Positions 32,411 through 52,024 are shown, counted from the stretch's first letter. The stretch: 64,000 bases of DNA from an uncultured Kofleriaceae bacterium (GCA_964419605.1 CAYQQM010000001.1:51620-115619), one strand, 5' to 3'. Numbers and translations: made by a program. Notes: generated by a model from the sequence alone, not told the origin.

Positions 32411-32440
32411 ACACCCTATAGGTGTATACTCCTATAGGTG
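32411..32440. promoter_or_regulatory. Candidate operator: two copies of the 8-bp palindrome CCTATAGG, 16 bp apart, preceded by an A/T-rich stretch
   Basis: CCTATAGG(TG) occurs at 32415-32424 and 32431-32440. The second copy overlaps the GTG start of the toxin gene. TTATTGTAATAAATAC lies just upstream. Confidence 0.4.
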
Positions 32441-32707
32441 CTTCGTCAGGTCGCTCTGAGCAAGCTCGTGCAAAAGCAGATTCGACGGCTGCCGAGCCAC
32501 ATTGTCGATTCGCTGCTTATGTGGGTCGACGACGTCGAAGAACGTGGAGTCGCGGAAGTAAGGAAAGTACCTGGATACCACGACGAACCACTGAAGGGCG
32601 AACGCAGTGGCGAAAGGTCGATCCGGCTCAATCGCAGTTGGCGAGCAATCTACGTAGTTCGAGGCGACGAGATCCTCGTGAAGGAAGTTACCCATCATGT
32701 CTACTAA
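32438..32707 (+). CDS. RelE/HigB-type type II toxin
   Basis: 89 aa. The pattern KQIRRLP...PGYHDEPLKGERSGERSIRLNRSWRAIYVV...VTHHVY is typical of RelE/ParE-superfamily toxins. The toxin-first gene order is HigBA-like. Confidence 0.75.
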   Translation: MLRQVALSKLVQKQIRRLPSHIVDSLLMWVDDVEERGVAEVRKVPGYHDEPLKGERSGERSIRLNRSWRAIYVVRGDEILVKEVTHHVY

Positions 32708-33014
32708 AAGGCCGAAAAGTGAAGCTAGGAAAATTCTTGAGAAGCTGACCGGAGGGCCGTTGACTCTCGGCCGCGCGCTTCGAGCTATTCGTCTCGGAGA
32801 AGAACAGAGTTTGTCCGAGTTTGCGAAGATACTCAGCATCTCTGCGTCTCATCTTTCGGACATCGAACTCGGCCGAAAGACGGTGAGCGCGGAGCGCGCA
32901 GCGAAATTTGCACGGCGACTTCGCCGCTCGGAAGAGCAGTTTGTCCGTCTTGCACTGCAAGATCTTGTATCGCAAGCAGGCCTCAAGTTTCGGGTCAATC
33001 TGAACGCTGCCTGA
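32697..33014 (+). CDS. XRE-family HTH antitoxin (HigA-like)
   Basis: 105 aa. LRAIRLGEEQSLSEFAKILSISASHLSDIELGRK is a Cro/C1-type HTH. It overlaps the toxin stop by 11 nt. Confidence 0.8.
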   Translation: MSTKRPKSEARKILEKLTGGPLTLGRALRAIRLGEEQSLSEFAKILSISASHLSDIELGRKTVSAERAAKFARRLRRSEEQFVRLALQDLVSQAGLKFRVNLNAA

Positions 33015-34142: not shown

Positions 34143-34527
<385 letters not shown>

Positions 34528-34931
34528 GTAGACACCCTAACAGAATAGCAACTCACTCGGGTTTGCCGCCAGAGATTGCTTGCTAGAGTCAGTGCCGCTC
34601 AGATAAGCGTAAGCTAGTGAGTTTGAGACGATTTGCAGATCGAGACGCAATGCGTTTGACCTTGACGATGACCCGAACATTGACCTTGAGGCAACGTTCG
34701 ACTTCGACCCCACCGTGAACCTCTGCCTTGACGTCGTCGAGGGGGTGCAGTGGGCGGCGTAGGTCAACCGTGGGGTCATCGTCGTACGTCGCCGTCGACC
34801 TCATGGGCGGAGTCAAGGATCAAGTCAAGGTCAACGAATTGATACTTTCGATGTTTCACTTGACTTGCCCGCATTGTTGCTAGGGTCCGATGGGCGCAAG
34901 ATTCCGTAGAAATCGTCATTATTACAATGGT

Positions 34932-35744
34932 TTATATTTCTCCGGACACGAGTAGGCTCTGCGCTAGCTCCAGCGCTCGCTCGGGCGTTCGGGTGTGCAG
35001 CCGGTAGAGCGGCACGCCGGCAAGGGCCGGGCCGAGCTTTGGCAGGTCGCGATGGGTGCGATGGAATACGGCGGGCCACAGCGCCGCGAGCGCTTCGCCC
35101 GTCGATAGCCGCTGGATCGCGTCACTGGCATCCGGACCGTGTGCGATCGAAACGATGGCTGCGGTCGATGCTGTGCCGCGCCACATCTGGGATTGCGGTG
35201 GGTGAAACAGCCGAAATGTATTGCGCGGATGCGGGCGCAAAGGATAATCGTCGACGATGAACCCGAGAGGAGTCGCAAGGTCCGGATCTGCGACGTGCAG
35301 AGCCCGCGCGAGGCCTCGACAGGTGCCGTCTGAGCCGATCGCAACACACTCTTCGGACAGGTAGTGCCAACCGCGAGCGAGCAGTGCGCGGACCAGCGTG
35401 CTCTTGCCCGACCCAGACTCGCCAGCAACCACCATGGCGCGCCCGTCACCGGTAACCACCGCGCCGGCGTGAAACGCGATGTCGGCGGTGTACATCAGCA
35501 CGCGCGACACGAGATTGCGCTCAAACGCCGGAATCAGGTCGATCGGCTGCTCGACGCGAATCATCACGTCCTGCTCGAGCCAAACTTGTGGCGGCGGCCC
35601 AGCGTCGAGAACGTACCGAATATCGGGTGTCTTCGAACTGTCCGCGTAGGACCGCAGCACGCCCGCAAGCGGCGCCTCGACCTCGACCGCGTTCGTGGCT
35701 ACGCGAACCGAAACACCTAGACAGTCGACGACGCGGTGCCACAT
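34932..35744 (-). CDS. HPr-kinase-C-terminal-like P-loop protein (HprK-related kinase)
   Basis: 270 aa. HAGAVVTGDGRAMVVAGESGSGKSTLVRALLARGWHYLSEE is the HprK-like P-loop region. Confidence 0.75.
   Translation of the reverse strand: MWHRVVDCLGVSVRVATNAVEVEAPLAGVLRSYADSSKTPDIRYVLDAGPPPQVWLEQDVMIRVEQPIDLIPAFERNLVSRVLMYTADIAFHAGAVVTGDGRAMVVAGESGSGKSTLVRALLARGWHYLSEECVAIGSDGTCRGLARALHVADPDLATPLGFIVDDYPLRPHPRNTFRLFHPPQSQMWRGTASTAAIVSIAHGPDASDAIQRLSTGEALAALWPAVFHRTHRDLPKLGPALAGVPLYRLHTRTPERALELAQSLLVSGEI
34949..34979. repeat. 31-bp direct repeat, copy 2
   Basis: Identical to 34102-34132. It encodes ...RALELAQSLL at the 3' end of the HprK-like gene. Confidence 0.9.
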
Positions 35745-36007: not shown

Positions 36008-37158
36008 GTTGGCCCCCCTAGAACTACAAGGGCGCGCTCGGTGAGGCGACAGCTTGCACACTGAAGCCTCAGTTCAGGTTCGGCGGCTACCGGAAGTGCG
36101 TGTGTGGGCACGGCGCGACGGGTCGGCGTGCGGCCCAACAAATCGAGCAATGAGCCGTCGCGAACATTGCCAAGCACCGCAGCGCGCTGAAAGATACAGG
36201 GCACGACATCGCCGGTATACGTGACACATAGCTTTCCGCGGCGCGAGGCCATCGGTCCCGCTCCGGTGTGCGTGCTACCCGCGGGGTCGCGCATCGCCAG
36301 CGCTACCGCCCTACCCGCCTCGGCTACGGCCTCACCCCGGCCCACCGAGTAAGCTCGCGTCCAGTCGACCTGTTTCACACCGCGTGCATGCAGGTCATCG
36401 ACGAGGTCCTGGATGCCGGTCTGTTGGTCGATGACGATGATCGAAACGCGAAGCTCGAGCCCGGACCCGACCACGCGATCGATCGCCGCGAGGGTTCGGC
36501 GCTGGCTTCCCGGGGTGCGCGTGATTCGGTCGTGCTCGTTGGCATCGATCGAGTACATCGAAAACGCAAACGCGGGGCGGGCCGGGGCAAGCTGCGCGAG
36601 CAGGTCGCCATGCAGCGCCAAACCGTTGGTGTAGATCTCTAGGTGCGGAATGCCGCGCGCTCGGGCATGTGCCACAGCGTCGGGCAGAAAATCGCACAAC
36701 AGCGGATCGCCACCGGTGAACTGGATGCGGCGAAACCCCAGGTCCACGGCTTGGTCGATCACAGACAATGCGGTGGTGCGCTCGAGGGCCGCCTCAACCG
36801 AAGGGGCTGAGTCCGCATAACAGTGCACGCACCGCTCATTGCACCGACCGATGAGCTCGAGAAACAGCGTGTCAAAGCCATCCAGCCGAACCACGTCGAG
36901 CCGTGTCAGAGGTACCGAGGGCGTTGCGAGCCAGTCGGTCAGCTCTCCGAGCGCAGCGTGGGCGGGTGCCCATCGCGTTAGGGTCGAGGTTGGCGCTGCC
37001 TGTGCGAGCGATGCTTCGATCTCGGCGCAAATCGGCCCCTCGACGACCGCGCGCTGCCCCGCCTGGTTGATGAGCACGAACGCGCCCTGTCGACGCGCGA
37101 CCAGCCCGCCCGCTTCAGGAAAAGCCCGACCCAACGCGACGGCGGCCAGAGCGTGCAT
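36004..37158 (-). CDS. Radical SAM enzyme with a C-terminal SPASM/twitch-type auxiliary-cluster region
   Basis: FLELIGRCNERCVHCYA (CxxxCxxC), FTGGDPLL, and C-terminal KLCVTYTGDVVPCIF (C-x9-C containing GxxxxC) plus LQCASC (CxxC). The N-terminal extension of about 100 aa is unassigned. Confidence 0.9.
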   Translation of the reverse strand: MHALAAVALGRAFPEAGGLVARRQGAFVLINQAGQRAVVEGPICAEIEASLAQAAPTSTLTRWAPAHAALGELTDWLATPSVPLTRLDVVRLDGFDTLFLELIGRCNERCVHCYADSAPSVEAALERTTALSVIDQAVDLGFRRIQFTGGDPLLCDFLPDAVAHARARGIPHLEIYTNGLALHGDLLAQLAPARPAFAFSMYSIDANEHDRITRTPGSQRRTLAAIDRVVGSGLELRVSIIVIDQQTGIQDLVDDLHARGVKQVDWTRAYSVGRGEAVAEAGRAVALAMRDPAGSTHTGAGPMASRRGKLCVTYTGDVVPCIFQRAAVLGNVRDGSLLDLLGRTPTRRAVPTHALPVAAEPELRLQCASCRLTERALVVLGGPT

Positions 37159-37382
37159 TACCTCACCGGCGGGCAGCCTATAACGGGGGGACAGTTGTCA
37201 GGTACGCAGCCACTAGGACGACAGCCGCCGTTGGGCACGCAAGATCCTGCCGGCTGGCACCCCGCCTGCTCCAGCGTGATCACGCCAATTACCATCGGCG
37301 GAACGTACTTCGCCATCCGCAGGAGACGTCGTCGCCCTGGGTTCGCAAGCTCTGCACTCGAATCCTCGTTGTCGTGGGACAT
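37158..37382 (-). CDS. Candidate RiPP precursor: 74-aa peptide with a Tat-like leader and six Cys-x-Pro repeats
   Basis: MSHDNEDSSAELANPGRRRLLRMAKYVPPMVIGVITLEQAGCQPAGSCVPNGGCRPSGCVPDNCPPVIGCPPVR. Its TAA stop shares one base with the radical SAM ATG (TAATG). The start choice (ATG 37382) is uncertain: there is an alternative ATG at 37421, and the track ORF extends to 37562. Confidence 0.55.
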   Translation of the reverse strand: MSHDNEDSSAELANPGRRRLLRMAKYVPPMVIGVITLEQAGCQPAGSCVPNGGCRPSGCVPDNCPPVIGCPPVR

Positions 37383-37539
37383 GATCGCGTCTTGCGCTGG
37401 GTAGCGCCGAAAACGTCTCATGAAGGGAGCGCCCGCCGCAACCCATGTCAGTGGTTTTGAGCGGTGCGCGCCGCCGATCACTCTCGCTGCGGACTGCCCT
37501 GCTTTGGCGGCGCCCAAGCGCTGGGCTTGGCATGTTTCG

Positions 37540-39528
37540 TCATTCCGTTGCGCGCCGCACAATCGCCCGCAGGCGGCGGAAATAGTGGTGAGCTGCAGCC
37601 TGACCGAGGCCCCGGCTCACTGAAATCCACTCGCGCAATGCGGTTGCAGGTTCGAACGCCGCACCAGCCCGTGTTCGCGCCGCATCGTCTGGAGTAACCG
37701 CCACGCCGTTCGCACGCGCCGAGTCGGGAAGCGCGACGGCCGCGCCGCCAGTCGTACGCGCCGCATCCTTTTGAGCCGGTGACGTGGCGGTGTCATTGGG
37801 CGCGGTGCTTCGCGGCACATCCGATAACCATCGAGTAACAGACGCGACCGCGATCCACTCCGCTGGCATGCGGGTACGCTCGATCTCCGCCCGGATATCC
37901 TTCAGTGCGAAGGGTGTATTGGCGGCCGAATCCCGCAGTTTACCGGCTCGGGCTTGGCTCAGCACACGGGCGAGCGTGAGGCACGCCACGGTCTCGGCGC
38001 GATCGAGCCATAACCAGCGCGCGTTCGGCATGCTTTCAAACGCGGAGCGACGCTCCTGCACTGCCGTCCACGTGCGCGGCAGCTCGAAGCGCTGCTCGCG
38101 GATGATCACGACCTTGCTCGTGCGCGCCAGGTCGACCGCTCGCGCGAGCACCGAAGCGACGGAAGCATGATGAAGCGACGTTAGATAAACCGCCTCCAGT
38201 TCGTGCCCCGGCGCCTTAACCGTGGTGATCAACCGATCGCGCTCCGTGCGCGTCGACACGTCGAGCCTATGCACGAACGACAGCGCACTCGCGATCCCTT
38301 CGGCCAGCTCGGCGGCATCGAACGGAGTGCCGGCGCGCTCTTTGTCGCTGAACTCCCGTTCGACCTTAGCGGTCTCTCCATCCCACCCGTCCGGGTCTTC
38401 GATCCATCTCCGCACTCCCTTGTCGGGAGCGCTACGCACCTCGGTGGAGCTGGGGCTCTCGAGCCGACCTGCCGCTGCGGGTACAAGCACTGCGTTGCCC
38501 TCGAAACCGCGAAGTAATGCGGCGAGTAGGAGACGCGGCGTCATTCCGGGCTCCGCGATCAGGGCTTTGACATCGGCCTTTGCGAGCGGACTCGGGAACC
38601 GCTGGTTTCGACCGTCGCCGTTTGCGCGCGCGATCCTCTCATGCCACGCGCGCAGCAATAGCTCCCGTTCGCTGGGATTGGGCGCGTCGAGCAGCAGCGT
38701 CTCATGCGCCACGCGCGACTTTTGCGGCAGACTCAACCGCGGGGCGATGAATTGCATCCACTCACTGGTGAGGGCCAGCTGCACAATCGTTAGAGCTGGC
38801 AATGTATCGACCATTTCGCTGACGAGATTGCCGTAGCTCAGAACGCGCGCGTCGTTATCTCCTGCTAGATTTTCGAGCTGGTCGAATGTGAGAACCAGAG
38901 GCGCCACCGGCGCAGCCATCACCGCCAGTAGGCGCAGGACGTGAAGGACGTCGCGCTCCGACAGCGGCACGCCTGTATCCCCCGAGCGCGGCTCTCGCCC
39001 TGAGAGCCAGGCGAGCTCTTTCCACCGCGCAGCCGAGTCCAGAATGCCAAGGCCCAAGATCGCACTCGCCAAATGCGACGCCGGCGCCGCTTCGGGGACC
39101 ATGGCGAGAAGCCTGGCAGTGGCGCGTTCGACCACCGCGGCGTCTCTCGGGGTGTTCTCCAGCCAGTGTGCGGCAAACAGGTCGAGATGGGTAGCGCTTC
39201 CACCGTCGACCGGAAGGCACAGTTGATCGACGACACCGGCGAGGACATCCCGCAGCGACAATCCAACCCCGAAATAGGGTCGGAGCAAAATCAACGTGGC
39301 GCGGGAGGACGCGCGGTGTCGCATGCGGGCGAATAGATGGGTTTTGCCGCCGCCGGCTGGGCCGAGTACGGCGACCGCTTTCGATGGCGCCAACGTGCCG
39401 CGGCCAGCGAGCTGCCTGACTTCGTCGAGGCGCTCGAGGATTGGAGTGGAGATATGCGAATTTAGCGCCTCGACGTCGAGAAATTCTTCTGCAAATGGCG
39501 CTGTATGCAGGCCGATCGGAGTTCGCAT
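37540..39528 (-). CDS. Large P-loop NTPase (AAA/ORC/STAND-like), family not recognised
   Basis: 662 aa. Walker A AVLGPAGGGKTHLFARM and Walker-B-like PLVLTFDQLENL. The remainder is Ala/Leu/Arg-rich and helical. Confidence 0.7.
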   Translation of the reverse strand: MRTPIGLHTAPFAEEFLDVEALNSHISTPILERLDEVRQLAGRGTLAPSKAVAVLGPAGGGKTHLFARMRHRASSRATLILLRPYFGVGLSLRDVLAGVVDQLCLPVDGGSATHLDLFAAHWLENTPRDAAVVERATARLLAMVPEAAPASHLASAILGLGILDSAARWKELAWLSGREPRSGDTGVPLSERDVLHVLRLLAVMAAPVAPLVLTFDQLENLAGDNDARVLSYGNLVSEMVDTLPALTIVQLALTSEWMQFIAPRLSLPQKSRVAHETLLLDAPNPSERELLLRAWHERIARANGDGRNQRFPSPLAKADVKALIAEPGMTPRLLLAALLRGFEGNAVLVPAAAGRLESPSSTEVRSAPDKGVRRWIEDPDGWDGETAKVEREFSDKERAGTPFDAAELAEGIASALSFVHRLDVSTRTERDRLITTVKAPGHELEAVYLTSLHHASVASVLARAVDLARTSKVVIIREQRFELPRTWTAVQERRSAFESMPNARWLWLDRAETVACLTLARVLSQARAGKLRDSAANTPFALKDIRAEIERTRMPAEWIAVASVTRWLSDVPRSTAPNDTATSPAQKDAARTTGGAAVALPDSARANGVAVTPDDAARTRAGAAFEPATALREWISVSRGLGQAAAHHYFRRLRAIVRRATE

Positions 39529-39529
39529 A

Positions 39530-40372
39530 TCAGTTCATTCCTTTCGATCCGCGACCAACAATCCACGACAGGCGCGTTCCCATGGGGCCCACTGGGCACC
39601 ACTCCGCATCTTCGCCCGACAAGCGCCCCATGCCGCTTTCAGGTTCTAGAGCAATCGCGCCCCGCGCCGCCGCGGCAAGAAGCGCGCGCTTGCCGGCTTC
39701 TGCGCTCGCCCCCACGGAACGGAGCAGGTCTGGAACGTGGATCGGGTGGTGATCTGCGCGAAGCCGCCGTCGGATTTCTCGGTCGATTACTTCATCGATT
39801 ACTTCGGCCCGTTCGGCCCGTTCGGCCCGTTCCGGGCTCGTCAGCGTAGCCGTGTGATCTTCGATGGAACTCGTCCAACGCGCCAGCTGCGCGGCGATGT
39901 CTTCACAAAGCACGCCACAGCCTCCCCCCTTGCCGCGGGCGCGGCGAACCAGGCGCTGTGCCTGGGTCAGGCGACGCAAAAGCTCGTCGAGGTCGCGAGC
40001 AATGCGACCCTCGCTCGACGAGCGGACAAACCCGATTCCCCCCTCGCGCATGACGACAACGAGCTCGCGGCGAGCGACGAGACGCTGCACCGCTTCCTTT
40101 ACCTCTCGGGCGGTTGCCCCCGAAATCCGCTTCTCGATCGCCTTGCTCGGAACAAATCCCTGGTCGGCGAGCCGAAGCAGTTGCTCCTCGAGAGGCCGCC
40201 GAATGGTCGATCCCACTTCGTAACCACGCGCCGTTAGCCCTGGCATCAGCGCCGACAGATGGCGTCGAAGCGATGTCCATTCGCGACGTGGAACCGACCC
40301 GCTCTGTTGCACCAGCTGATCGACGCGAAGCAACAAGGCGTCGACATCCACTGGCGTTTTCGCGCGAGCCAT
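39530..40372 (-). CDS. Hypothetical 280-aa protein coupled to the P-loop NTPase (possible winged-helix segments)
   Basis: Its stop TGA (39530-39532) is separated by 1 nt from the NTPase ATG (39526-39528). It contains in-frame tandem repeats (ERAERAERAE, VIDEVIDREI). Confidence 0.6.
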   Translation of the reverse strand: MARAKTPVDVDALLLRVDQLVQQSGSVPRREWTSLRRHLSALMPGLTARGYEVGSTIRRPLEEQLLRLADQGFVPSKAIEKRISGATAREVKEAVQRLVARRELVVVMREGGIGFVRSSSEGRIARDLDELLRRLTQAQRLVRRARGKGGGCGVLCEDIAAQLARWTSSIEDHTATLTSPERAERAERAEVIDEVIDREIRRRLRADHHPIHVPDLLRSVGASAEAGKRALLAAAARGAIALEPESGMGRLSGEDAEWCPVGPMGTRLSWIVGRGSKGMN

Positions 40373-41105: not shown

Positions 41106-41666
41106 TTATGCGAGATCCACCAGTGGATCGCCTCGCTCAACCGACTTCCCGACTGCCGTGTGGATAGCGGTTACCGTACCACCGCGCTCGCACATGAGCT
41201 CATTTTCCATTTTCATTGCCTCAATTGCGATGACGGGCGCGTGCGCGGGCACGGAATCGCCGATGGCAACCAGTACCTTGACGATCTTCCCTGCAATAGG
41301 CGCGCGCAATCGTTCGGCGCCAAGGGTTGGAGTGCTTTGTGCTCCGGGTTGATCCGCGGGTCTGCGTCGTAGCGCGTCTTCGACCGCGATCGATACTTCG
41401 GCTGAGCCTATCGTTGCGATCACCGAGGCAGGCGAGGCAGGCGAGGCAGGCGACGCCGGGACACCGCCGCGCCGCTCTACGTCGATGAGTATGCTCCGCT
41501 GATCGATCAGGATCGACCAGGTTCCGGGTCGAACTTCGTTCGCATCGACCTCGTAAACGCGATCGTCGATCGAAATCCGAACGCGCCCATTGGGCAAAGG
41601 TCCTTCGACCACAACGGCACGTTCCCTACCATCGTGGCCTGGCGTCACGACCAGCTGGCGCTTCAT
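41106..41666 (-). CDS. Biotinyl/lipoyl-attachment-domain protein (BCCP-like C-terminus)
   Basis: C-terminus APIAGKIVKVLVAIGDSVPAHAPVIAIEAMKMENELMCERGGTV (AMKM biotinylation motif). It also has a PAS x4 linker. Confidence 0.8.
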   Translation of the reverse strand: MKRQLVVTPGHDGRERAVVVEGPLPNGRVRISIDDRVYEVDANEVRPGTWSILIDQRSILIDVERRGGVPASPASPASPASVIATIGSAEVSIAVEDALRRRPADQPGAQSTPTLGAERLRAPIAGKIVKVLVAIGDSVPAHAPVIAIEAMKMENELMCERGGTVTAIHTAVGKSVERGDPLVDLA

Positions 41667-42244
41667 GGAACCTGCTCCACGACCCGGAACCCGCTGCCAA
41701 TCGGCTCGAATACTCCGCGGTCAGTAATAACCAGCGAAACCACTCCGGCGGCGGTCAACGGATAGGTGCAGCGCGGAACCAGTTTGTCTTCCCCGGTCTT
41801 GGTCACATGCTGCATCATGACAATTAGCCGGCGACACCCGCTGGCGAGGTCCATCGCGCCCCCAATGCCAATGGTCTTGCCGCCTGGAATCGCCCAGTTT
41901 GCGAGGTCGCCGCTCGCTGAGACTTGCATCGCTCCCATGATCGCCAGATCGATGTGTCCGCCTCGGATCATCGCAAACGACGCCGCAGAGTCAAAGGTCG
42001 ATCCGCCTGGGAGAACCGTTACTGTTTGTTTGCCAGCGTTGATCAGCCTGGGGTCTTCATCGCCATCGAATGGAAATGGCCCCATTCCAAGCAAGCCATT
42101 CTCCGAATGCAGCCACGCGTGACCGTCGGGCAGGTGATCAGCGACCAGGGTCGGCAATCCGATGCCGAGATTGACGATGGATCCTGCGGGAATCTCCTTC
42201 GCCGCGCGGCGAGCCATGTCGGCGGTCGACCATGCTCGAGTCAT
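41663..42244 (-). CDS. 3-oxoacid CoA-transferase subunit B
   Basis: IVNLGIGLPT...LHSENGLLGMGP (catalytic SENG)...GAMQVS..GDLANW. Confidence 0.9.
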   Translation of the reverse strand: MTRAWSTADMARRAAKEIPAGSIVNLGIGLPTLVADHLPDGHAWLHSENGLLGMGPFPFDGDEDPRLINAGKQTVTVLPGGSTFDSAASFAMIRGGHIDLAIMGAMQVSASGDLANWAIPGGKTIGIGGAMDLASGCRRLIVMMQHVTKTGEDKLVPRCTYPLTAAGVVSLVITDRGVFEPIGSGFRVVEQVP

Positions 42245-42990
42245 TGCGCGTCCTCGCCGTGGGGAGTTCCAGTCGCACCCGGGCGCTGCCTCACGGTCTT
42301 GTATTCAAAGGCGTCTTCGTGCTCAGGGACATGGACAATCTTATGTACGTAGATGCCCGGCAGGTGGACGTCGTCCGGCGCAATGTCGCCGTTTTCGACC
42401 AGCACATCGCATTCCACGATGGACAGCTTGGCCGCAGTTGCGGCGACTGGATTAAAATTTCGCGCCGTGCGCCAAAATCGCAGGTTGCCGAATCGGTCGC
42501 TCGTGTGAGCTCGTACCAGAGCCACATCGCCGGGTAGTGCACGCTCCAATAGGTAACGCCGTCCGTCGATTTCGCGTACCTCCTTGCCCTGCTCCACGAC
42601 CGTGCCCACGCCAGTCGCTGTAAAAAACGCCGGAATGCCAGCTCCTGCTGCCCGCATGCGTTCGGCAAGGGTTCCCTGCGGAACGACTTCCACCTCGACC
42701 TCCCCGGAGGCCATGCGCGCGTGCAGATCATCGTTGTTGCCGATGTAGCTGCAGATAACTTTCTTCACGATTCCGGCTTTCAACCACGCAGCTAGGCCTT
42801 TTCCAAGATTCCCCGCGTTGTTGGAAACCAACGTCAAATCGCGAACGCCGCGATCGACCACGCCGCGTATCAACGCTTCTGGATTTCCCGAAAGCCCAAA
42901 GCCTCCCACCAAAATCGTCATACCGTCGCGCAGCGACATCAACGCATCGGCAACCGATGCTTCCACTTTGGATGCGTGTCTGCCGATCAT
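42241..42990 (-). CDS. 3-oxoacid CoA-transferase subunit A
   Basis: DGMTILVGGFGLSGNPEALI...VSNNAG...VEVVPQGTLAERMRAAGAGIPAFFT. Confidence 0.9.
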   Translation of the reverse strand: MIGRHASKVEASVADALMSLRDGMTILVGGFGLSGNPEALIRGVVDRGVRDLTLVSNNAGNLGKGLAAWLKAGIVKKVICSYIGNNDDLHARMASGEVEVEVVPQGTLAERMRAAGAGIPAFFTATGVGTVVEQGKEVREIDGRRYLLERALPGDVALVRAHTSDRFGNLRFWRTARNFNPVAATAAKLSIVECDVLVENGDIAPDDVHLPGIYVHKIVHVPEHEDAFEYKTVRQRPGATGTPHGEDAQ

Positions 42991-44273
42991 GACCCAAATG
43001 CAATGCTAACTGCTTCGCCAAACGAACGCACGCCCAGGAGCAAATCCTGTTCGGTGATGCACAGCGGCGGCGCGATGATGCAGGTACGCCGGGTCGCATC
43101 GACGTGCAGCGACAATCGGCGGGTGGCTAGTTCGGCTCCGAGTTTGGCCCATGCCAAACGCGATTCCGGCTCAGGGGCAGACAGCTGGATCTCTAGAACC
43201 GCCAGCAACCCCAGGCCTCGGCTGAATACCTGGGCCGAAGTGCCGGACGACAGCCGAACTCGAATCGCCTCGAGCTCGCCGAGCAATATCGGACCGAGCC
43301 GCGCAGAGTTTGCAAACAACGCTTCGTCGTCATAGACCTTCAGCGTTTCGAGCGCGGCGGCACAGGCGGTTGGATGCGCGTAGTACGTGAGACCACATGC
43401 CAAGACGTGGTCGTCAAAATAGCGCGCAATTCGATCGTGAACGATAACAGCGCCGATGGAGGCGTATCCCGACGCAAGCCCCTTGGCCACCGTGATCATG
43501 TCGGGGACCGCCGACCAATGTTGAAACGCAAAGGCGGTGCCGGTCCGCCCGAATCCCGTGAGCACCTCGTCGGCCACCAGCAGCGCGCCATCTTCGTCGC
43601 ACGCGCGCCGTACCATTGGCCAGTATTCGGCCGGCGGCACGAGCACGCCATTGGCCCCGGGAACAGGTTCGAGAAATACGGCCGCCACCTGGCCTGGGCC
43701 TTCGCGACGCAGCAGCTCGCCGATGTGCGTTGCACACTCGCGCGCACAGCTCGCGACGCGCTGCCCAAACGGGCATCGATCGCAGTAGCAATCCTCGGCG
43801 CGAACAACGCCAGGGATTCCCGGCTCTACCGGGGCACGCCTCCAGTCTCCGGTGAGTGATACGGCCCCCATGGACGCACCGTGATAGCTGTGGCGCCGCG
43901 CGATGTTCTTGGTTCGCTTCGTGAATAGTCGCGCGATTTTTAGGGCATTTTCGTTGGCTTCCGCGCCGCCCAGCGTGAAGAACACCTTGGAAAACCCCGG
44001 CCCCGCCAGACGCAACAGCCGCTCAGCGAGCTCGGTCTTGGCGGGAAACACCGCGTTCGGCGCAGAAACACACAAGGTGTCGGCCTGGCGTTTGATCGCG
44101 TTAACGATGCGCGCGTTGCCATGTCCAACATTGACCTGATAGCTCAGCGATCCGAGGTCCAGCCACCGTCCTCCATCCGCGGTTGTGAACCATGCGCCCT
44201 GCCCGCCGGTCAGCTCCAGCGGTTTTGCGCCGCGCTGCGCGGTCCAGGTGAAGAAAAACGGGTAGTCGCTCAC
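42987..44273 (-). CDS. Class-III (omega-type) PLP aminotransferase
   Basis: GSLSYQVNVGHGN, FFTLGGAEANENALK, HGAS, LLVADEVLTGFGRTG, ITVAKGLASGY. Start set to the GTG at 44273, which overlaps the upstream stop (GTGA); the track ORF begins at 44363. Confidence 0.85.
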   Translation of the reverse strand: MSDYPFFFTWTAQRGAKPLELTGGQGAWFTTADGGRWLDLGSLSYQVNVGHGNARIVNAIKRQADTLCVSAPNAVFPAKTELAERLLRLAGPGFSKVFFTLGGAEANENALKIARLFTKRTKNIARRHSYHGASMGAVSLTGDWRRAPVEPGIPGVVRAEDCYCDRCPFGQRVASCARECATHIGELLRREGPGQVAAVFLEPVPGANGVLVPPAEYWPMVRRACDEDGALLVADEVLTGFGRTGTAFAFQHWSAVPDMITVAKGLASGYASIGAVIVHDRIARYFDDHVLACGLTYYAHPTACAAALETLKVYDDEALFANSARLGPILLGELEAIRVRLSSGTSAQVFSRGLGLLAVLEIQLSAPEPESRLAWAKLGAELATRRLSLHVDATRRTCIIAPPLCITEQDLLLGVRSFGEAVSIAFGS

Positions 44274-45397
44274 AGCTGCCAGCGCTCCGATGCGACGCGA
44301 TGTATCAGGCCCTGCTGCGCCCACACCGCGCCGGTATCGAGGTTCATCGCGATGGCACCGCACGTTGCAGCACCGTGTGGAGACTCGGGCGTCGACAGGT
44401 TCGTGCAGATGCTTTGCGGCGACCCATCGTCAGCGCCAAGTCGCTGCCACGCATCGTCGAGATCCGCGATCGGCGCCCGCTGCATGTCGGCCTGGAGCCA
44501 ACGCATGCGGTCGAACGTCGTGCTGGTTTCCGGAACCTTGCTCCGCGCTGCGATGTCCGAATCGAGGCAGTGATTCGTATGGCAATACCAAGCACCGCCG
44601 GCGAACACTTGTTTGCGCCGGGTACCGCTCGCCTCGATCGCAAATGCATTCGTCCGATCCGCGACCATGTAGTGGCGCCCCGAGCCGATCGGACTACGCG
44701 CAATCACATCGCGGGCAGCCGCGGCGGTTCGCTCGCGAAGTGCACGACGCACGATCCCCGGCCACACCACGCCCAACGTTGCGTCGGTGGAATGCAGGTT
44801 ATTGATCACCAGCCCGACGCGCGCTGCGTTCATGCCGGCCATTCCCAAACAGCCCGTCACAGTGAGCAAGCGAGCAGCTGGCCCGGTTGCCGATTCAGGA
44901 ACGGACAGCACCATGACGTACGGAATCGCCGTCGCATGCATGTCCCAGGTTTGCGCCAGGATTCGTCCAGTTGGCGACTCGGCCCATAACACGCTGCACC
45001 CGTCGCCGCCCAGCTCACCCAAAGCGTGGACACCGGCTGCAGCGGGCTGCAATCGCGCATCGTCGTGGGTAGGCGCTGGCTGCCATGTACTCAAATCGGG
45101 ATCGAGGTCGCGCAAATCGGTATAATGGTTGGCCACCACGACCGCCTCGGGCGATAGCTGCGCGCCCTCGGCAATTCCAAGTAGCTCGGCGTACACGTCG
45201 GAGTCGTAGCGCTCGAGCACCGGAAGGTGGGCTGCAGCGGCCGCAAGCACCTGAGCGCGCGATGAAAAGCTACTCACTTTGGTGCAGAGATACATTCGAA
45301 TCTCCGCCACGGCTGCCACTTCGGTTCGAAAGTGCTCGCCGTGGATGCGGCCCCACTCGCGCGCACTCACCCCCGTTGGGAGATCGAGAACTCTCAC
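44270..45397 (-). CDS. Peptidase C45 / acyl-CoA:6-aminopenicillanic-acid acyltransferase-family (Ntn hydrolase) protein
   Basis: 375 aa. It has a GGDGCSVLWAE candidate Gly-Cys autoprocessing site and overall C45-like features. GTG start overlaps the upstream stop (GTGA). Confidence 0.7.
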   Translation of the reverse strand: MRVLDLPTGVSAREWGRIHGEHFRTEVAAVAEIRMYLCTKVSSFSSRAQVLAAAAAHLPVLERYDSDVYAELLGIAEGAQLSPEAVVVANHYTDLRDLDPDLSTWQPAPTHDDARLQPAAAGVHALGELGGDGCSVLWAESPTGRILAQTWDMHATAIPYVMVLSVPESATGPAARLLTVTGCLGMAGMNAARVGLVINNLHSTDATLGVVWPGIVRRALRERTAAAARDVIARSPIGSGRHYMVADRTNAFAIEASGTRRKQVFAGGAWYCHTNHCLDSDIAARSKVPETSTTFDRMRWLQADMQRAPIADLDDAWQRLGADDGSPQSICTNLSTPESPHGAATCGAIAMNLDTGAVWAQQGLIHRVASERWQL

Positions 45398-48300
45398 GGT
45401 TTCATCTCGCTGGCCGCAAGCGCTGCGGCCGCTGCAGCGATCTGATCCAGTGCGGGGATGATTCCGATCCGCCCGTTGGGAAACCGTCGAACGCGAATTC
45501 CGCGCAGTTCAAACGCAAGCGCAACTGCGGCAGGGTCACCGCCCGGATCAATCACGCGGTAGCCGCCCAGCCCGAAGCTGTTGTACGCACCGAGCGAGCG
45601 TTCGAGCGCTGCCGAAGCCGTCGCGATATCGAGTTGGCGCGCCGCGCGGAGTTGGTGATGTTGTCGCACGAGTGAGAGTTCGTCGCCGTCCCACGTCGAA
45701 ATCAAGGTCAGCGGCGCAGACACAAACCACCGAGCAGCGACGTGGAGATAACCGGTTTGCCCGCCGCCCCACCATGTCAGGACGTCGGGCATCACCCCAG
45801 TTGCTGGCGACAGAAATGCGCCCTTGCCAGAACGGTAACTGTGCGTCGTGGTCTCTACTGCAATCAGCGGAAGGTCCAGCTCCGAACGCAACGTTGCAAG
45901 CTCCGCCAGGAAATCGGCTGGCAGGACCCACCCCGTGCGCTCTTGAACCAACTCATAGACAAATCCGATCACGTTGTCTCGCCCGGCGGTCTCGACTGCT
46001 GAGCGTAGTGCACGGATGGATTCGCCTGTTCCCGCCACGGCCGGATGGGGAATACGCGGCCAGGAAAAATACGCCGGTCCGCCGCGATGCGTGTCCGGAT
46101 CGCTCAGCGACCGCGTCGCGGCGACGGTGTGGCCGTAATATCCCCCCGTGAGCCCGATCGCGACCGTCGCCGATTTGCGAGTGAAGCGAACGAGGCGCAG
46201 TGCTTTGTCCACCGATTCATCGCGGCTCGACGTCAGGTACAGGTGCGGCAACTCTGGCACCAACGAGCTCACCCACTCGATGGCGCGAATCGCAGCGGGT
46301 GTGGCGTAGTTCATCAGCGTGATCTTGTTGACCGCAGGCCCGAACAGCGCACCATGTGCCTCTGCAGCGACGAGAGAATCCGGCCCTGTCGCAAACGGTT
46401 TGGATAATCCCGAGGCGAGGTCGAGGCGAAAATTACCGCTGCTGACTCTCCGCGCGCACGACTCGCGCTTTGCATCCGGATCGGGCTGATAGGGTCCGAG
46501 TGGAATGCGGTAGTACATCGCTTGACCTTCCGGATCTGCGTGTTGCCCCGTCATGACTTGGACCACATGCGCGCCAAAGGCGCGGTTCTTGTGCGTCAGC
46601 GCCGAAGCGCTGCGACCGATTCGATTGCGACCACTGACGTAGCGATAGCGCGATTCGCCGGTTTCGGTTTTGCGCGATGCGGCATCGCGAAGCTGCAGTT
46701 CCTTGAGGCGTCGGCCCACCCCCATGCCTCGATAGTCCGAGGCAACGGTAATTGCCGCAGAGTACATCGTGTTTCGACGTCCGAGCATCGGATCTGCGCT
46801 ACAGCCATCGACGTCGCGATGGGATTCAAGCGCCCCACCGACGGCAACGCCGACCAGCTTCCAACGATCAGGCGATGTGGACACCGTCGACGTTGCGGAG
46901 CCGCTCGGACCCTCAGCGACCGTTTGCGATGAAGCCTGTGCTTCGCAGATGACGAGTGAACCTTCCCGATCCGCAATCGCAGCGCGAATCTCAGCGACCG
47001 GCGTGCGATGGGTTAGAGTGTAGACCTGAGATTCCATGTCGATAATCTGCTGCAGATATGCGGTCGCTTCCTCGCGCGGCACCTGGCGATATCGCAGTGT
47101 GGGTGGCGTCGGCAGCTCCGGGGGAGCAGCGTTGTCATCTTCCCACGATGGAGGTTGTTTGCCCTGATGCGCATCGAGCCAAGACAGCGATCTTCGAATC
47201 GCTTCAAACAGCTGATCGACCTCTCTGGAATGGTACGAATCGCTCAGGCGATATCGCGCGGTCCTGGTGCCCGCCCCAAATACGACCGCGCCGCGCCAAA
47301 ACCGTTGGCCGAGAAATGCATCGAGGAGCGCTGACGTTGGTAGGTCAAACGCAAACGCGTAGCCCGTCGATCTCGGAAATTGCACGAGGTGCGGATAGGA
47401 CGAGGCGATGGCGGCGAGCCGGGGCGCAACGAGCTTCTCGAGCCGCTCGGCGTGGCGGTTGGCGGCGACCATCTCAGCGTGAATTCGACCCCGCACCAAG
47501 GAGGCGCATTGAACGGATGCCGGTTCCGGGTCAGCAAATCGCGACATCACCACGCCGACCTGTGCGCGTTTCGCAAACGTGACGGCGTCTGGGGCATCCT
47601 GCTGGCCTCGAGGGGTGAGCAATCGAAACTTCGAGTGCCATGCAAACGGACCACCTAAGCCGAATCCGACCTGAACCTCATCGAAAACCAACAGGGTCTT
47701 GTGGAACCGCGTCAGAAGGCGCAATGCGCGAAAAAACCGCTCGGTTGCGTACCGGTCGCCACCCTCGCACTGCATCGGCTCGACGATGCAGCAGAAGTAG
47801 GTACCGGTCGCTAAGGCATCGTGCACCGCAGACAATGCGTGCACCTCAGCAGCGAGCAGTGCATCGCTTCGGCTCCGAGTTCCTGAGCCCCCCCCCCGGG
47901 GGACTTCCTGCGCAGCGCCGCTTTCTTTAGACCCCGAGCGGGTCATGCTGGATCCGCCGAATCGGTCCTTCAAGTGTCCGATTTCGCCCGCAGCGATGGC
48001 CGCGTAAAAACCGTTCGGTGCCGTCGGTTGTTCAAGATGGGGGGTATCCCACACCGGAAACGGAGCGAACGTGCATTCGTAACCCGCCAACTCAAAGGGC
48101 TTTCGCTTCGTCGGCGAGTGCGTAGCATGAAGCGCGAGCAGAGTTCGGCCGTGAAAACTGCCTTCAAAGGCCAGCACCCTGGTGGCAGCTGGGCGATCGC
48201 AGTTCATACGACACAGCGCCATCGCTTTTTCATTGGCCTCTGCGCCGCTAGACACAAATGCCACATGGGGCAGTCCCGGAACCAGCTTGCGCAAAGCGGT

Positions 48301-50181: not shown

Positions 50182-50242
50182 AAGTACCCACGGCTGTGTC
50201 GCGTCACCACGGACACGAGGCATCGTGGTAATAACGTTACTG

Positions 50243-52024
50243 ATGCCGTCTCTGCAGTTTCTGGCTGGTCCCATCGCAGGACGGCGGTATTCCCTCGCCG
50301 AGGGCGATTACGTCATCGGCCGACGCGCCGACTGCCAGATTTTCGTACCCGACATGCGGGTTTCGCGGCAGCACGCCCGACTGTGGCGCACGGGCGAGAC
50401 GTGGTCCCTAGAAGACCTGGGATCCAACAACGGGACGTACATCAACGGAATAAAGGTTCAGTCGTCGATACAGCTGAAGCACGACGACGAGATCGCAATT
50501 GCCAACAACCGGATCCGGGTCGAACTGGCCGACAAGTCCAGCGACGGCAGCAGGGCGCCAGATCCGCATTTGGTCACGATCGTCAATGTGCCTTCGCAGT
50601 CGCTGATCCGATCCCGCGATGACTCGCTCGGCGCAATGCCGATCGTGAGCTCGAGTATGGTCAGCATCACCGATCCCAAGGCGGTTCGGCTGATCGAGCG
50701 CAAACTCGATGCGCTGATCCGCATTCTGCACGCGACCGCGTCTTCCGGCTCGGCCAATGCGTTACTCGAAAAGCTCGTCGAGGCTCTCCTCGATGTATTT
50801 CCGCTCGCAGAAGACGTTGGTGTGCTCGTTGAGGAAGAGCGAACCAACGAGCTCCGCGTGCAATGTCAGCGCCATCGCCGGCAGCGCGGCAACTTTGAGC
50901 CGGGCTCGGTCGATAGCGCTGTCGACGGCCAGCTGCGCGTGCCTGGCACCATCATCGAGCACGTCGTCTCCGATCGCCGGGGTGTGCTGCTGGGCGAAGG
51001 CTCAGACAACGACGAAGCGATCGGGGCCCGTATGGGAGCGCCGCTCATTTACGCTGGGTCGCACTACGGCGTGGTCTACGTTGAGGCAGCACAGCAGATG
51101 TTTCGCCAGGAAGATGTCGACCTTTTGCAAGCCATTGCAACCCAAGCAGGCCTCGCGATTCACGCAACGCGAGTCGCGGCTCAGCTCGCAACGCGCGAGC
51201 GACTTGAACGAGATTTGCGCGTTGCTCGTCAAATCCAGCGTTCGCTACTGCCACCCGACGTGCCGCAAGTCGTCGGATTGGACTTCGCCGTCCACTACGA
51301 GCCCGCCTACCAAATCGGCGGCGATTTTTACGATTTCATCTGGCACGATCCGTCGCACCTCGGCCTCGCTGTCGGCGACGTAGCGGGCAAGGCGATCAGC
51401 GCCGCGCTGTACATGGCGCGGCTGACGTCGGAGTTGCGGTCTCGTGCTGCGATCGCGCGCACACCCGCGCGGCTGCTGAGGCGGGTCAACCAAGAAATCG
51501 CACGCCTCGGCGACGACGGCATGTTCGCCACGCTGGTCTACTGCATTTACGACCTCGACACGCGGACCCTGGTATTCACCAACGCTGGGCACTGCGTGCC
51601 GCTGTTGCGGCGAGGCGACCGTGTGTTTCCGCTGCAGGCGGAGCGCGCGCATACCCCTCCACTTGGAGTGGTGCCCGAACTCGAAGCCGGCGAGGCGCGC
51701 GTCCAACTTCATACGGGCGACGTTTTGATCATCGTTTCGGATGGAATCATCGAGTCGCGTGATGCCAACGGCAACGAATACGGTGTCCACCGACTTTCTC
51801 GACGGATCCGCACGGCTCGTGGCTCGGCGCAGGACATCATTAAGGCGATTTTGGCCGATATCGATGCCCACGCCCATGACCAACATGAACAAGGTGACGA
51901 CATGACCATCGTTGCGATGGCGATCGAGTCGCGGCGCGCCAAGCGCAAGACCACCACGATTCCGGGAGTCAATCCGGAAGATAGCGGCACGTCGCTAACC
52001 CCCGACGAAGAAGAGTCCGACTGA
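50243..52024 (+). CDS. FHA-GAF-PP2C (SpoIIE-type) phosphatase
   Basis: FHA: IGRRADCQIFVPDMRVSRQHARL...LGSNNGTYINGIKV. The central region is GAF-like. PP2C: ARQIQRSLLPP...GGDFYDF...GDVAGKAISAAL...TNAGH...SDGIIE...DDMTIV. Confidence 0.85.
   Translation: MPSLQFLAGPIAGRRYSLAEGDYVIGRRADCQIFVPDMRVSRQHARLWRTGETWSLEDLGSNNGTYINGIKVQSSIQLKHDDEIAIANNRIRVELADKSSDGSRAPDPHLVTIVNVPSQSLIRSRDDSLGAMPIVSSSMVSITDPKAVRLIERKLDALIRILHATASSGSANALLEKLVEALLDVFPLAEDVGVLVEEERTNELRVQCQRHRRQRGNFEPGSVDSAVDGQLRVPGTIIEHVVSDRRGVLLGEGSDNDEAIGARMGAPLIYAGSHYGVVYVEAAQQMFRQEDVDLLQAIATQAGLAIHATRVAAQLATRERLERDLRVARQIQRSLLPPDVPQVVGLDFAVHYEPAYQIGGDFYDFIWHDPSHLGLAVGDVAGKAISAALYMARLTSELRSRAAIARTPARLLRRVNQEIARLGDDGMFATLVYCIYDLDTRTLVFTNAGHCVPLLRRGDRVFPLQAERAHTPPLGVVPELEAGEARVQLHTGDVLIIVSDGIIESRDANGNEYGVHRLSRRIRTARGSAQDIIKAILADIDAHAHDQHEQGDDMTIVAMAIESRRAKRKTTTIPGVNPEDSGTSLTPDEEESD

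Follow-up and report, generated by a model that had tools for sequence, protein, structure and literature searches.

A C-x-P repeat peptide with a Tat-like leader, encoded beside a radical-SAM enzyme in an uncultured Kofleriaceae bacterium, as the putative precursor of an undescribed RiPP family

Introduction

What does a bacterium do with a 74-residue peptide in which every cysteine is followed, two residues on, by a proline? The peptide is encoded in a 64,000-nucleotide stretch of DNA from an uncultured Kofleriaceae bacterium (GCA_964419605.1, CAYQQM010000001.1:51620-115619; hereafter the window), directly ahead of a gene for a radical S-adenosylmethionine (radical-SAM) enzyme. An initial annotation of this DNA offered two alternatives, either the leader/core precursor of a peptide that is made by the ribosome and modified after translation (RiPP) or a (lipo)peptide exported by the twin-arginine translocation (Tat) pathway. 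That proposal is borne out in part below, and the evidence favors merging the two rather than choosing between them. On balance we lean, with slightly better than even confidence, towards a single reading in which the open reading frame (ORF) is the precursor of an undescribed RiPP family, served by a conserved cassette, with docking of the leader, thioether formation in the core, decoration of a serine and export by the Tat pathway.

A peptide gene coupled to a radical-SAM gene

The peptide (MSHDNEDSSAELANPGRRRLLRMAKYVPPMVIGVITLEQAGCQPAGSCVPNGGCRPSGCVPDNCPPVIGCPPVR, 74 aa) carries cysteines at residues 42, 48, 54, 59, 64 and 70, and all six stand in the context C-x-P, as first reported; glycine immediately precedes four of the six, which agrees with the remark that most of them follow Gly. 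A minor correction concerns the C-terminal string, which had been given as 33 residues and as quoted has 34. When the 34-residue core with its 8 prolines was shuffled, six cysteines all followed by x-P arose in 23 of 1,000,000 shuffles. The stop codon of the gene overlaps the ATG of the radical-SAM gene by one base (TAATG), a classic coupling layout, and the precursor is translationally coupled to that gene. Coordinates of these and other features are collected in Table 1.

Judged from its substitution pattern, the precursor is a genuine coding gene under clear purifying selection. Against a contig of 94% identity (L082) it differs in 19 codons, 15 of them synonymous and 4 non-synonymous, with all four of the latter falling within residues 8-11 of the acidic N-terminus; against L084, 24 codon differences are synonymous only and 23 non-synonymous. 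The initial annotation had proposed looking for a coding-like pattern in orthologous loci, and the comparison with L082 delivers one. The 74-aa start (M-S-x-D) agrees with the M-[SAN]-[DE] starts seen across the family. A longer, 87-aa version that had also been entertained was rejected because its upstream ATG has no counterpart in L084 or L001.

It should also be considered that GC-rich DNA may have thrown up the ORF by chance, or that the peptide is Cys-rich but unmodified and has an unrelated radical-SAM gene as its neighbor by accident. The region has a GC content of 65% and holds many overlapping ORFs, including one on the opposite strand (37153..37404), and public gene callers skip the peptide in L082-L084. 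Against this stand the 15:4 ratio of synonymous to non-synonymous changes in the precursor frame, hundreds of homologues, and the co-occurrence of peptide and enzyme across gene orders and phyla, and we give the idea a negligible chance. The same substitution pattern led us to reject the opposite-strand ORF itself as a candidate.

Searches for other signals and for known families around the gene returned little. A scan for sigma-70 promoters upstream of the precursor found nothing, a terminator search gave a single terminator-like site, at chance level, and an Rfam search of the window produced no match. Pfam and NCBIfam hold no family for the precursors, whether the search used entire peptides or just their leaders, the sole matches being to keratin/PMG low-complexity models and, weakly, to formate_TAT.

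A family reached through its enzyme

Searched as a single sequence, the 74-aa peptide found two relatives only, namely P0001, with seven C-x-P units and the gene order of the window, and P0002, which appears frame-shifted at its C-terminus. The family was reached instead through homologues of the radical-SAM enzyme and their translated flanks. That enzyme has 477 homologues at E ≤ 1e-10, whose hosts, where named, are Myxococcales, Polyangiales, Kofleriaceae or Hyalangium. From genome and metagenome contigs, scanning recovered 80 loci, or 81 with later additions counted, and nearly every one has in its flanks a small ORF that combines the same leader with a tail rich in Cys and Pro. A precursor is detectable in 67 of the 81 loci, including loci of differing gene order. 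The initial suggestion of a leader/core RiPP precursor is borne out by this pairing and by the coupling of the peptide gene to the radical-SAM gene, which is in turn followed by a gene for a PqqD-type RiPP recognition element (RRE). Four loci (L020, L022, L056 and L069) have the precursor on the downstream side of the kinase gene, and the association therefore survives rearrangement. In 13 of the 14 loci lacking a precursor, the contig stops within 300 nt upstream of the enzyme.

A profile built from 33 precursors recovered 59 called proteins, all labeled 'hypothetical' and without Pfam domains. An exhaustive hidden Markov model (HMM) search of 1.84 billion cluster representatives then gave 305 matches at E ≤ 1e-3 and 139 at E ≤ 1e-10, each match standing for a cluster at 50% identity and almost all being 55-120 aa long; a profile search of related genomes had been put forward as a check, and it answers in favor of a real family. 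Three long proteins (3,296-3,981 aa) in which only the Cys/Pro core matched were treated as low-complexity noise. Public gene calls skip the precursor in the three closest contigs, L082, L083 and L084, and with 59 called members against some 480 radical-SAM homologues the family is systematically under-annotated. It is mainly a family of Myxococcota, mostly uncultured. Family statistics given below refer to three sets: 57 unique precursors found beside radical-SAM homologues, 181 database representatives, and 233 unique sequences.

Some members depart from the common form. A sub-family (L002-L005, L041 and L042) has only 3-4 cysteines (GCQPEPCSCxPSGG), followed by a long Cys-free tail of Pro, Ala and acidic residues. 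A divergent branch (L025 4105..4449; P0172, P0176-P0179), which includes a Mariprofundales metagenome-assembled genome (MAG), keeps the RRRLLK-YxPP leader and has a core of S-C-x-P-S-A-C-x-P-C followed by Lys/Gly/Ser-rich tails. In L077 (2961..4274) a degenerate second leader (RARRYLLR...) sits in-frame at the N-terminus of the radical-SAM ORF, and in L056 (8040..8401) the precursor is broken by a frameshift.

The cassette and its enzymes

Beyond the precursor, the conserved cassette consists of the radical-SAM enzyme with its fused RRE, a discrete PqqD-type RRE, an HprK-like kinase and an NTP_transf_5 protein, the last two of which the initial annotation had overlooked. With an adjacent co-inherited ORF, a conserved leader, a repetitive core and an RRE in the cluster, the locus has the generic makeup of an RRE-dependent RiPP pathway. 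Using the window proteins as tblastn queries against the 81 loci, we found the kinase in 50, the PqqD protein in 38 and the NTP_transf_5 protein in 30, counts that are lowered because many contigs are truncated. The ATG of the PqqD gene overlaps the radical-SAM stop (ATGA). An insertion of ~830 bp separates the kinase and NTP_transf_5 genes in the window, whereas their counterparts in L001 and L084 abut; in Kofleriaceae-type loci the NTP_transf_5 gene is divergent and upstream. Clustering of all long ORFs across the loci revealed no shared peptidase or transporter, and the annotations of L001 and L082-L084 list no SpI-type leader peptidase or MsbA-like exporter. The 662-aa P-loop protein and the other neighbors in the window were rejected as parts of the cassette, homologues being found in 0 of the 81 loci; they recur only in the same-species contigs L082 and L083.

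The radical-SAM maturase exceeds the gathering cutoffs of both Pfam Radical_SAM and SPASM. It has a predicted RRE-like domain at its N-terminus, the cluster motif CNERCVHC, and a truncated SPASM/twitch-like domain with C311, C321, C367 and C370; the pairing of a radical-SAM domain with a SPASM/twitch domain is that of sactipeptide and ranthipeptide enzymes. Within the family C106, C110 and C113 (the SAM cluster), C321, C367, C370 and H297 are invariant, and C311 is present in 18 of 21 members. A full SPASM domain would have a CX2CX5CX3C block, which the enzyme lacks, leaving only C311, C321, C367 and C370, and there is therefore one twitch-type site for an auxiliary cluster, possibly with an open coordination position. 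An AlphaFold (AF2) model of the enzyme (mean predicted local distance difference test score, pLDDT, 77; predicted template modeling score, pTM, 0.79) begins with a four-strand sheet and three helices at a pLDDT of ~85-93, a fold that in the model is RRE-like. Its top Foldseek matches are SkfB (3.4e-12, full-length alignment) and SuiB; by sequence only, matches to the Protein Data Bank (PDB) are weak.

Curated families do not claim the enzyme. The best NCBIfam match is StsB, at 64.8 bits against a cutoff of 625, and all 25 best matches lie far below their cutoffs, which places the enzyme outside StsB, AlbA, CcpM, SCIFF and other curated maturases. Its scores against the equivalogs of the HXS system are 52 bits for HxsC4 (cutoff 500) and 44 for HxsC (cutoff 268), and those of the SynChlorMet system are likewise not reached by the window proteins (ScmF 60 bits against 400, ScmC 19 against 125), with the Pfam ScmC matches on orthologues only 'faint'. 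PADLOC gave no specific match, only generic matches to the viperin-type radical-SAM core.

The discrete RRE has as its best NCBIfam match the lasso-peptide PqqD chaperone, with a weak match also to the PqqD of the 'HPr-rel-A system', and its best PDB match is the lasso RRE TfuB1 (0.002). It is here that a second body of work becomes relevant, as RRE, HprK-like kinase and NTP transferase together form the core set of the LPP peptides (PMC13381572). The LPP leader carries YxxPxVL, a version of the motif [Y/W]xxPx[L/V/I/F/A] read by lasso RREs, and LppB, in complex with its leader, uses an Asn to secure the kink that the leader makes at its Pro and an Asp to bond with the hydroxyl of the Tyr (PMC13381572). 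In our PqqD proteins Asn34 and Asp72 are invariant in 39 of 39 family members, and the leaders of our precursors have Y-x-x-P-x-[V/I/L] at the same register as LPP. The LPP kinase, LppK, polyphosphorylates core Ser3, and the LPP RRE presents the cleavage site to the peptidase (PMC13381572). Paeninodin-type lasso peptides are phosphorylated on a Ser by the same kind of kinase, and in pseudomycoidin a nucleotidyltransferase adds hexoses to the Ser phosphate (PMC8498205). Like all three, the window cassette has the unit of discrete PqqD-type RRE, HprK-like kinase and NTP transferase, and by this analogy the kinase and NTP_transf_5 genes tie the window system to the LPP/paeninodin tailoring set.

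Two further likenesses to LPP lie in the peptide. Both have a Tyr ~16-18 residues ahead of the cleavage site (predicted in our case), and each has a conserved Ser early in its core, phosphorylation of which has been demonstrated for LPP Ser3. The candidate in the window is Ser47, also overlooked at first, which stands immediately N-terminal to the first family-wide Cys. The residue in front of the first cysteine common to all clades is Ser or Thr in 155 of 170 sequences of the A-x-A clade and in 59 of 62 of the clade of the window (214/232). The differences are equally plain: the window cassette has neither an SpI-type (SipW-like) leader peptidase nor an MsbA-like exporter and adds a radical-SAM enzyme with an RRE of its own; its core is a conserved C-x-P repeat where that of LPP is variable; its leaders have an RR motif, a hydrophobic stretch and A-x-A; and LPP hosts are Bacillota, whereas the window family belongs to Myxococcota.

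Table 1. Position of the features described, counted from the first letter of the window except where another contig is named
Feature	Coordinates	Strand	Basis or remark
Precursor peptide coding sequence, 74 codons	37161..37382	-	sequence, purifying selection, family conservation
Precursor stop codon, TAA	37158..37160	-	
Leader, residues 1-41: acidic N-terminus, RRRLL, YVPPMV, hydrophobic stretch, L-E-Q-A-G	37260..37382	-	
Twin-arginine motif R17-R18-R19-L20-L21	37320..37334	-	match to Tat consensus RRxFLK judged by eye
Candidate RRE-binding motif Y26-V-P-P29-M-V31, type [Y/W]xxPx[LVIFA]	37290..37307	-	
12-residue uncharged stretch	37272..37307	-	
Ser47, candidate phosphorylation site of the HprK-like kinase	37242..37244	-	conservation; role by analogy with LppK on core Ser3
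Cys-rich core, residues 42-74, six [G/S/N]-C-x-P units (CQP, CVP, CRP, CVP, CPP, CPP)	37161..37259	-	
Radical-SAM maturase, 384 aa	36004..37158	-	Pfam Radical_SAM 2.9e-16, SPASM 2.3e-5
Discrete PqqD-family RRE, 96 aa	35717..36007	-	PF05402 on orthologues; NCBIfam lasso_PqqD_Strm 5.9e-7
HprK-like / ScmC-like P-loop protein, 270 aa, GESGSGKST	34932..35744	-	NCBIfam HprK_rel_A 1.3e-10, ScmC 5e-4, both below cutoff
NTP_transf_5 nucleotidyltransferase-family protein, 334 aa	33096..34100	-	PF14907 3.4e-33
Public gene-call gaps exactly at the precursor	L082 9607..10000; L083 2294..2687; L084 9110..10000		
HigB/RelE-like toxin (89 aa) overlapping a helix-turn-helix antitoxin (105 aa)	32438..33014	+	
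Segment between kinase and NTP_transf_5 genes	34143..34880	-	DUF2442 gene (34143..34415) and deleted DUF4160-partner remnant (~34396..34527)
662-aa P-loop protein (GPAGGGKTH) and 280-aa protein	37540..40372	-	weak AAA_16 (662-aa protein); no family (280-aa protein)
Operon-like run of metabolic genes	41106..50274	-	

The C-x-P unit and its chemistry

The C-x-P unit that was first remarked upon in one peptide proves to be a hallmark of the family, with 309 of 334 cysteines in this context among the precursors found beside radical-SAM homologues and 913 of 950 core cysteines among the database representatives. Residues at +1 vary freely and those at -1 are small (Gly, Ser, Pro or Thr), and the commonest period of the repeat is five residues. 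The precursors P0165 and P0167 terminate exactly in C-x-P, and therefore nothing after the proline is required. No acceptor residue is conserved outside the unit, and the enzyme must therefore act within or immediately around each one.

Freyrasin, a ranthipeptide, has six CxxxD repeat units, and SkfB and SuiB are RRE-containing RiPP maturases, of which SkfB makes a Cys thioether. SkfB (PDB 6EFN) is the best structural match to our enzyme and shares its N-terminal RRE, radical-SAM barrel and C-terminal auxiliary-cluster domain, although at 16% identity it is remote from it. A Cys-rich core with one short repeat unit per Cys is common to SkfB, the sactipeptides, the ranthipeptides and the window family. 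The differences from sactipeptides and ranthipeptides are that the C-x-P unit comes without a conserved acceptor such as Asp, that the window system adds a discrete RRE, a kinase and a nucleotidyltransferase, that its leader is signal-like, and that thioethers here are putative. A core so rich in Cys, an enzyme built like SkfB and an auxiliary cluster that may have an open position lead us to favor short-range thioethers as the likeliest core chemistry by analogy, in a judgment that stops a little short of an even chance.

The main alternative is oxidation of the cysteines in the manner of anaerobic sulfatase-maturating enzymes (anSMEs), hinted at by the sulfatase motif in its form C-x-P-x-R. 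The maturation motif of sulfatases is (C/S)-x-(P/A)-x-R, and here too Pro at +2 defines the target Cys, the enzyme is a radical-SAM protein with a SPASM-type domain, and the substrate is matured in the cytoplasm before export (which in our case is predicted). Abstraction of a C-beta hydrogen would convert each Cys to formylglycine, or to some other oxidized or desulfurized residue, and the product would be an exported poly-aldehyde peptide. Such chemistry would suit a core whose sole invariant context is C-x-P, which has no conserved acceptor outside the unit and may end in it; the last unit of the window peptide, C-P-P-V-R, even fits the sulfatase motif, and the anSME structure with bound Cys-peptide, 4k39, is a significant structural match (1.2e-7). 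That match, however, ranks 32nd, behind SkfB and SuiB, and no anSME model is found among the 25 best NCBIfam matches. An Arg at +4 after Cys occurs only in that last unit in the window and at 17 of 334 positions in the family, and is thus not conserved. The anSMEs (PDB 4K36-4K39) also have two auxiliary clusters where our enzyme has one site, lack an RRE and any leader dependence, and act on one site per protein; the window system lacks the combination of full motif and two-cluster enzyme. We consider anSME-like oxidation improbable, and return to thioethers as the preferred chemistry.

The leader and the route of export

The leader contains the GRRRLLRMAK segment and 12-residue hydrophobic stretch (YVPPMVIGVITL) that had been described, although the earlier description missed that a YxxPx[V/I] motif of the kind bound by RREs lies inside the stretch, at its very beginning (Y26-V-P-P29-M-V31). 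In our precursor alignments (A2 and A3) R17, R18, Y26 and P29 are invariant, and the leader consensus reads A-R-R-[RK]-L-L-[KR]-x3-Y-x-x-P-x-[V/I]. Among the 233 unique sequences the residue five after this Tyr is Val or Ile in 228, and across the family the RR falls at a median position of 17. The uncharged stretch, which contains YxxP, has a median of 16 residues and reaches at least 13 in 222 of 233; moderately hydrophobic, it has a composition that favors Ala, Val, Leu, Ile, Pro, Gly and Thr. Compared by eye, G-R-R-R-L-L-R in the window agrees with the Tat consensus (S/T)-R-R-x-F-L-K, and some family members run R-R-Y-F-L-K ... R-R-A-H-A|Q.

As a candidate cleavage site, A-x-A is present in 134 of the 181 representatives and in 155 of the set of 233. 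In those 155, a Lys or Arg lies at most four residues before A-x-A in 104, the following residue (P1') is Gln in 92, and a Tyr stands at -17 or -18 from the site in 109. The window belongs to a minority clade (62 of 233) whose leaders end L-x-Q-[A/S]-G-C-Q, and in the alignment the A-G-C-Q of this clade occupies the columns of A-H-A-Q. If the clade were cut after Cys42, Tyr would be at -17 in 46 of 62. An N-terminal Gln, whether after A-x-A (92/155) or after Cys42 in the window clade, could cyclize to pyroglutamate in the mature peptide.

The initial annotation had also seen a lipobox-like AGC at the end of the leader, from which it would follow that the product is a Tat-exported lipopeptide, its Cys42 diacylglycerol-modified and its L-E-Q-A-G-C site cut by signal peptidase II. 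Leaders of the window clade (~62/233) do terminate in [AS]-G-C or G-C, and an L-T-Q-G-C sub-clade would presumably satisfy the PROSITE lipobox rule. The sequence of the window is Q-A-G-C, however, with Gln at -3 where [LVI]-[ASTVI]-[GAS]-C calls for Leu, Val or Ile. Within the clade Gln, Glu, Asp or Asn occupies -3 or -2, and most family members have no Cys at this point, the homologous columns carrying A-x-A|Q with Ala in place of Cys. Gly or Ser before Cys is moreover the context of every C-x-P unit. On account of the Gln at -3, the want of conservation and the repeat context of Gly-Cys we find the lipobox unsupported, and regard a lipopeptide as very improbable.

As to the Tat-like leader itself, the twin arginines, the uncharged stretch and A-x-A lend support across the family to the earlier suggestion, and on these sequence features we think it probable that the leader truly serves as a Tat signal. 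A proline-rich peptide held by crosslinks is a natural client of the Tat pathway. Exit by that pathway with trimming by signal peptidase is proposed because the cassette carries no protease or exporter and the leader is Tat-like.

Several findings weigh against the combined reading as we have stated it. For the leader, no generic Tat HMM in Pfam or NCBIfam matches the full peptides or the leaders alone, and the sole matches to any Tat model are two weak ones to formate_TAT, the formate-dehydrogenase Tat-target model (E 0.036 and 0.087). The region before the RR is net acidic (median -3). The window's own uncharged stretch has just 12 residues, where a Tat signal would have ~13-20, and is ended by Glu38, and its leader end, L-E-Q-A-G-C, has no A-x-A and places the acidic Glu38 in the c-region. 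A Polyangium MAG (L014 107..364) encodes a YTPP motif and a C-x-P core with no twin arginine. The offset from RR to Y is 9 in 229 of 233 precursors, and this RR-x7-Y spacing is far more rigid than export alone needs; RRxLL may therefore also, or instead, dock the second (fused) RRE or the kinase. For the rest of the pathway, thioether chemistry is a guess, the core offers no conserved acceptor beyond its units, and the curated-family matches of kinase, RRE and radical-SAM enzyme all fall below cutoffs. One locus, L062, is alone in having ample flanks (7.5 kb) and yet no precursor-like ORF.

In a rival explanation the RiPP cassette is the same and the leader is no export signal at all, RRxLL and YxxPxV being docking motifs for two RREs or for the kinase. 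The hydrophobic stretch would then serve only as the β-strand that pairs with an RRE, and the product would remain intracellular or exit by some route not linked to the cassette. The rigid spacing from RR to Y, the two RRE domains of each system (one fused, one discrete), the acidic region before RR and the silence of generic Tat HMMs all fit such a leader, and LPP and lasso leaders carry YxxPxV and are yet not signal peptides (PMC13381572). What it leaves unexplained are the A-x-A site in 134 of 181 representatives, the Lys or Arg before it in 104 of 155, the uncharged run of ~16 residues, and the missing peptidase and exporter, both of which LPP and lasso clusters carry. We judge it unlikely, though a good deal less so than the anSME-like or lipopeptide explanations, and go on with a leader that is both docked and exported.

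Proposed mechanism and related systems

In the mechanism that we propose, the discrete RRE would bind the YxxPxV of the leader as a β-strand, as lasso and LPP RREs do, and present the core to the enzymes. The radical-SAM enzyme would act once per C-x-P, most likely forming a short-range thioether from the Cys sulfur to a carbon in or next to the unit. By analogy with paeninodin, pseudomycoidin and LPP, the kinase may phosphorylate Ser47 and the NTP_transf_5 enzyme may extend the phosphate. Export of the modified, rigid peptide would then fall to the general Tat pathway, and signal peptidase I would trim it; most members would be cut at A-x-A|Q, those of the window clade at or close to the homologous A-G-C|Q. 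While bound, the RRE would mask the signal in the manner of a Tat proofreading chaperone. A more specific proposal is a leader with a dual job, in which YxxPxV docks the RRE, the hydrophobic stretch and RR form the Tat signal, and the RRE proofreads, together with a phospho-Ser and a chemistry confined to C-x-P (3-9 repeats), for example a Cys-to-Pro or Cys-to-neighbor thioether or an anSME-like oxidation. Taken as a whole this is a tentative proposal, which we rate as clearly less than an even chance. If true, RRE-gated release to Tat would account for a cassette that does without a protease or exporter of its own.

Parts of this scheme have precedents. QhpC, a small Cys-containing polypeptide, is crosslinked in the cytoplasm by the radical-SAM/SPASM enzyme QhpD and then exported. 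It differs from our peptide in its Cys-Asp/Glu thioethers, in its dedicated protease and ABC exporter and in becoming an enzyme subunit, and no QhpD-type models occur among the best NCBIfam matches of our enzyme. Chaperones of the TorD/DmsD type hold a twin-arginine leader until maturation is complete, much as we propose for the PqqD RRE; the parallel is purely inferred, and TorD and DmsD have unrelated folds and serve cofactor-containing enzymes. In bufferins, cysteines are modified in the cytoplasm and the product is periplasmic. They share with the window system an export signal as an N-terminal extension of a RiPP (predicted in our case) and the lack of a dedicated exporter, and differ in having a Sec-type signal, a multinuclear non-heme iron-dependent oxidative enzyme (MNIO, DUF692), thiooxazoles and no YxxP/RRE-kinase module (PMC11626156). 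In the HXS antiphage system, His-x-Ser repeats of HxsA are matured by the radical-SAM proteins HxsB and HxsC before the protein acts in the periplasm (PMC13128918). A substrate with a tripeptide-type repeat and an N-terminal signal peptide (again predicted here) is common to both systems, whereas HxsA is larger, has a peptidoglycan-binding domain and repeats HxS rather than CxP, and HXS has no kinase or nucleotidyltransferase. The window precursor contains no HxS repeats.

We found no description of this family in the literature on natural Tat-leader RiPPs, on CxP with radical SAM, on SynChlorMet or on Myxococcota ranthipeptides, nor of a leader that joins an enzyme-docking motif to a Tat-like signal. 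The nearest concepts are LPP (PMC13381572), the HxS-repeat effector (PMC13128918) and the bufferins (PMC11626156). We accordingly class the system as a new RiPP family in which known modules are fused in a new way, with a putative core reaction. Should this be right, it would be a sizeable unnamed family of ~300 clusters at 50% identity, mainly in uncultured members of Myxococcota, a phylum valued for its natural products. It would also join radical-SAM Cys chemistry to the RRE/HprK-kinase/NTP-transferase module, two lines that have so far been separate, the latter having only recently been shown to define LPP peptides. The C-x-P unit, as a rigid and minimal recognition unit, would be useful for enzymology. 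If the Tat signal is real, the family would offer a natural crosslinked peptide on the export route of folded proteins and an RRE doubling as a signal-masking chaperone, an idea that would be useful in engineering the secretion of modified peptides.

Neighboring genes

Directly upstream of the precursor are the genes for the 662-aa P-loop protein and a 280-aa protein without a family. Further upstream, an operon-like run encodes a biotin/lipoyl-domain protein, two CoA-transferase subunits, a class-III aminotransferase, an AAT-family acyltransferase and a 1,626-aa aldehyde dehydrogenase-aminotransferase fusion, in an order that is conserved in L082. On the other side, the segment between the kinase and NTP_transf_5 genes holds a DUF2442 gene and the remnant of its deleted DUF4160 partner; L083 has an intact DUF2442/DUF4160 pair, and the window has ~290 extra bp and a lower GC content in this segment. 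Just beyond the NTP_transf_5 gene, the GC content falls to 52-54% at a toxin-antitoxin pair, and the ~720-bp segment carrying it is missing from the same-species contig L083, which makes it a strain-variable insertion.

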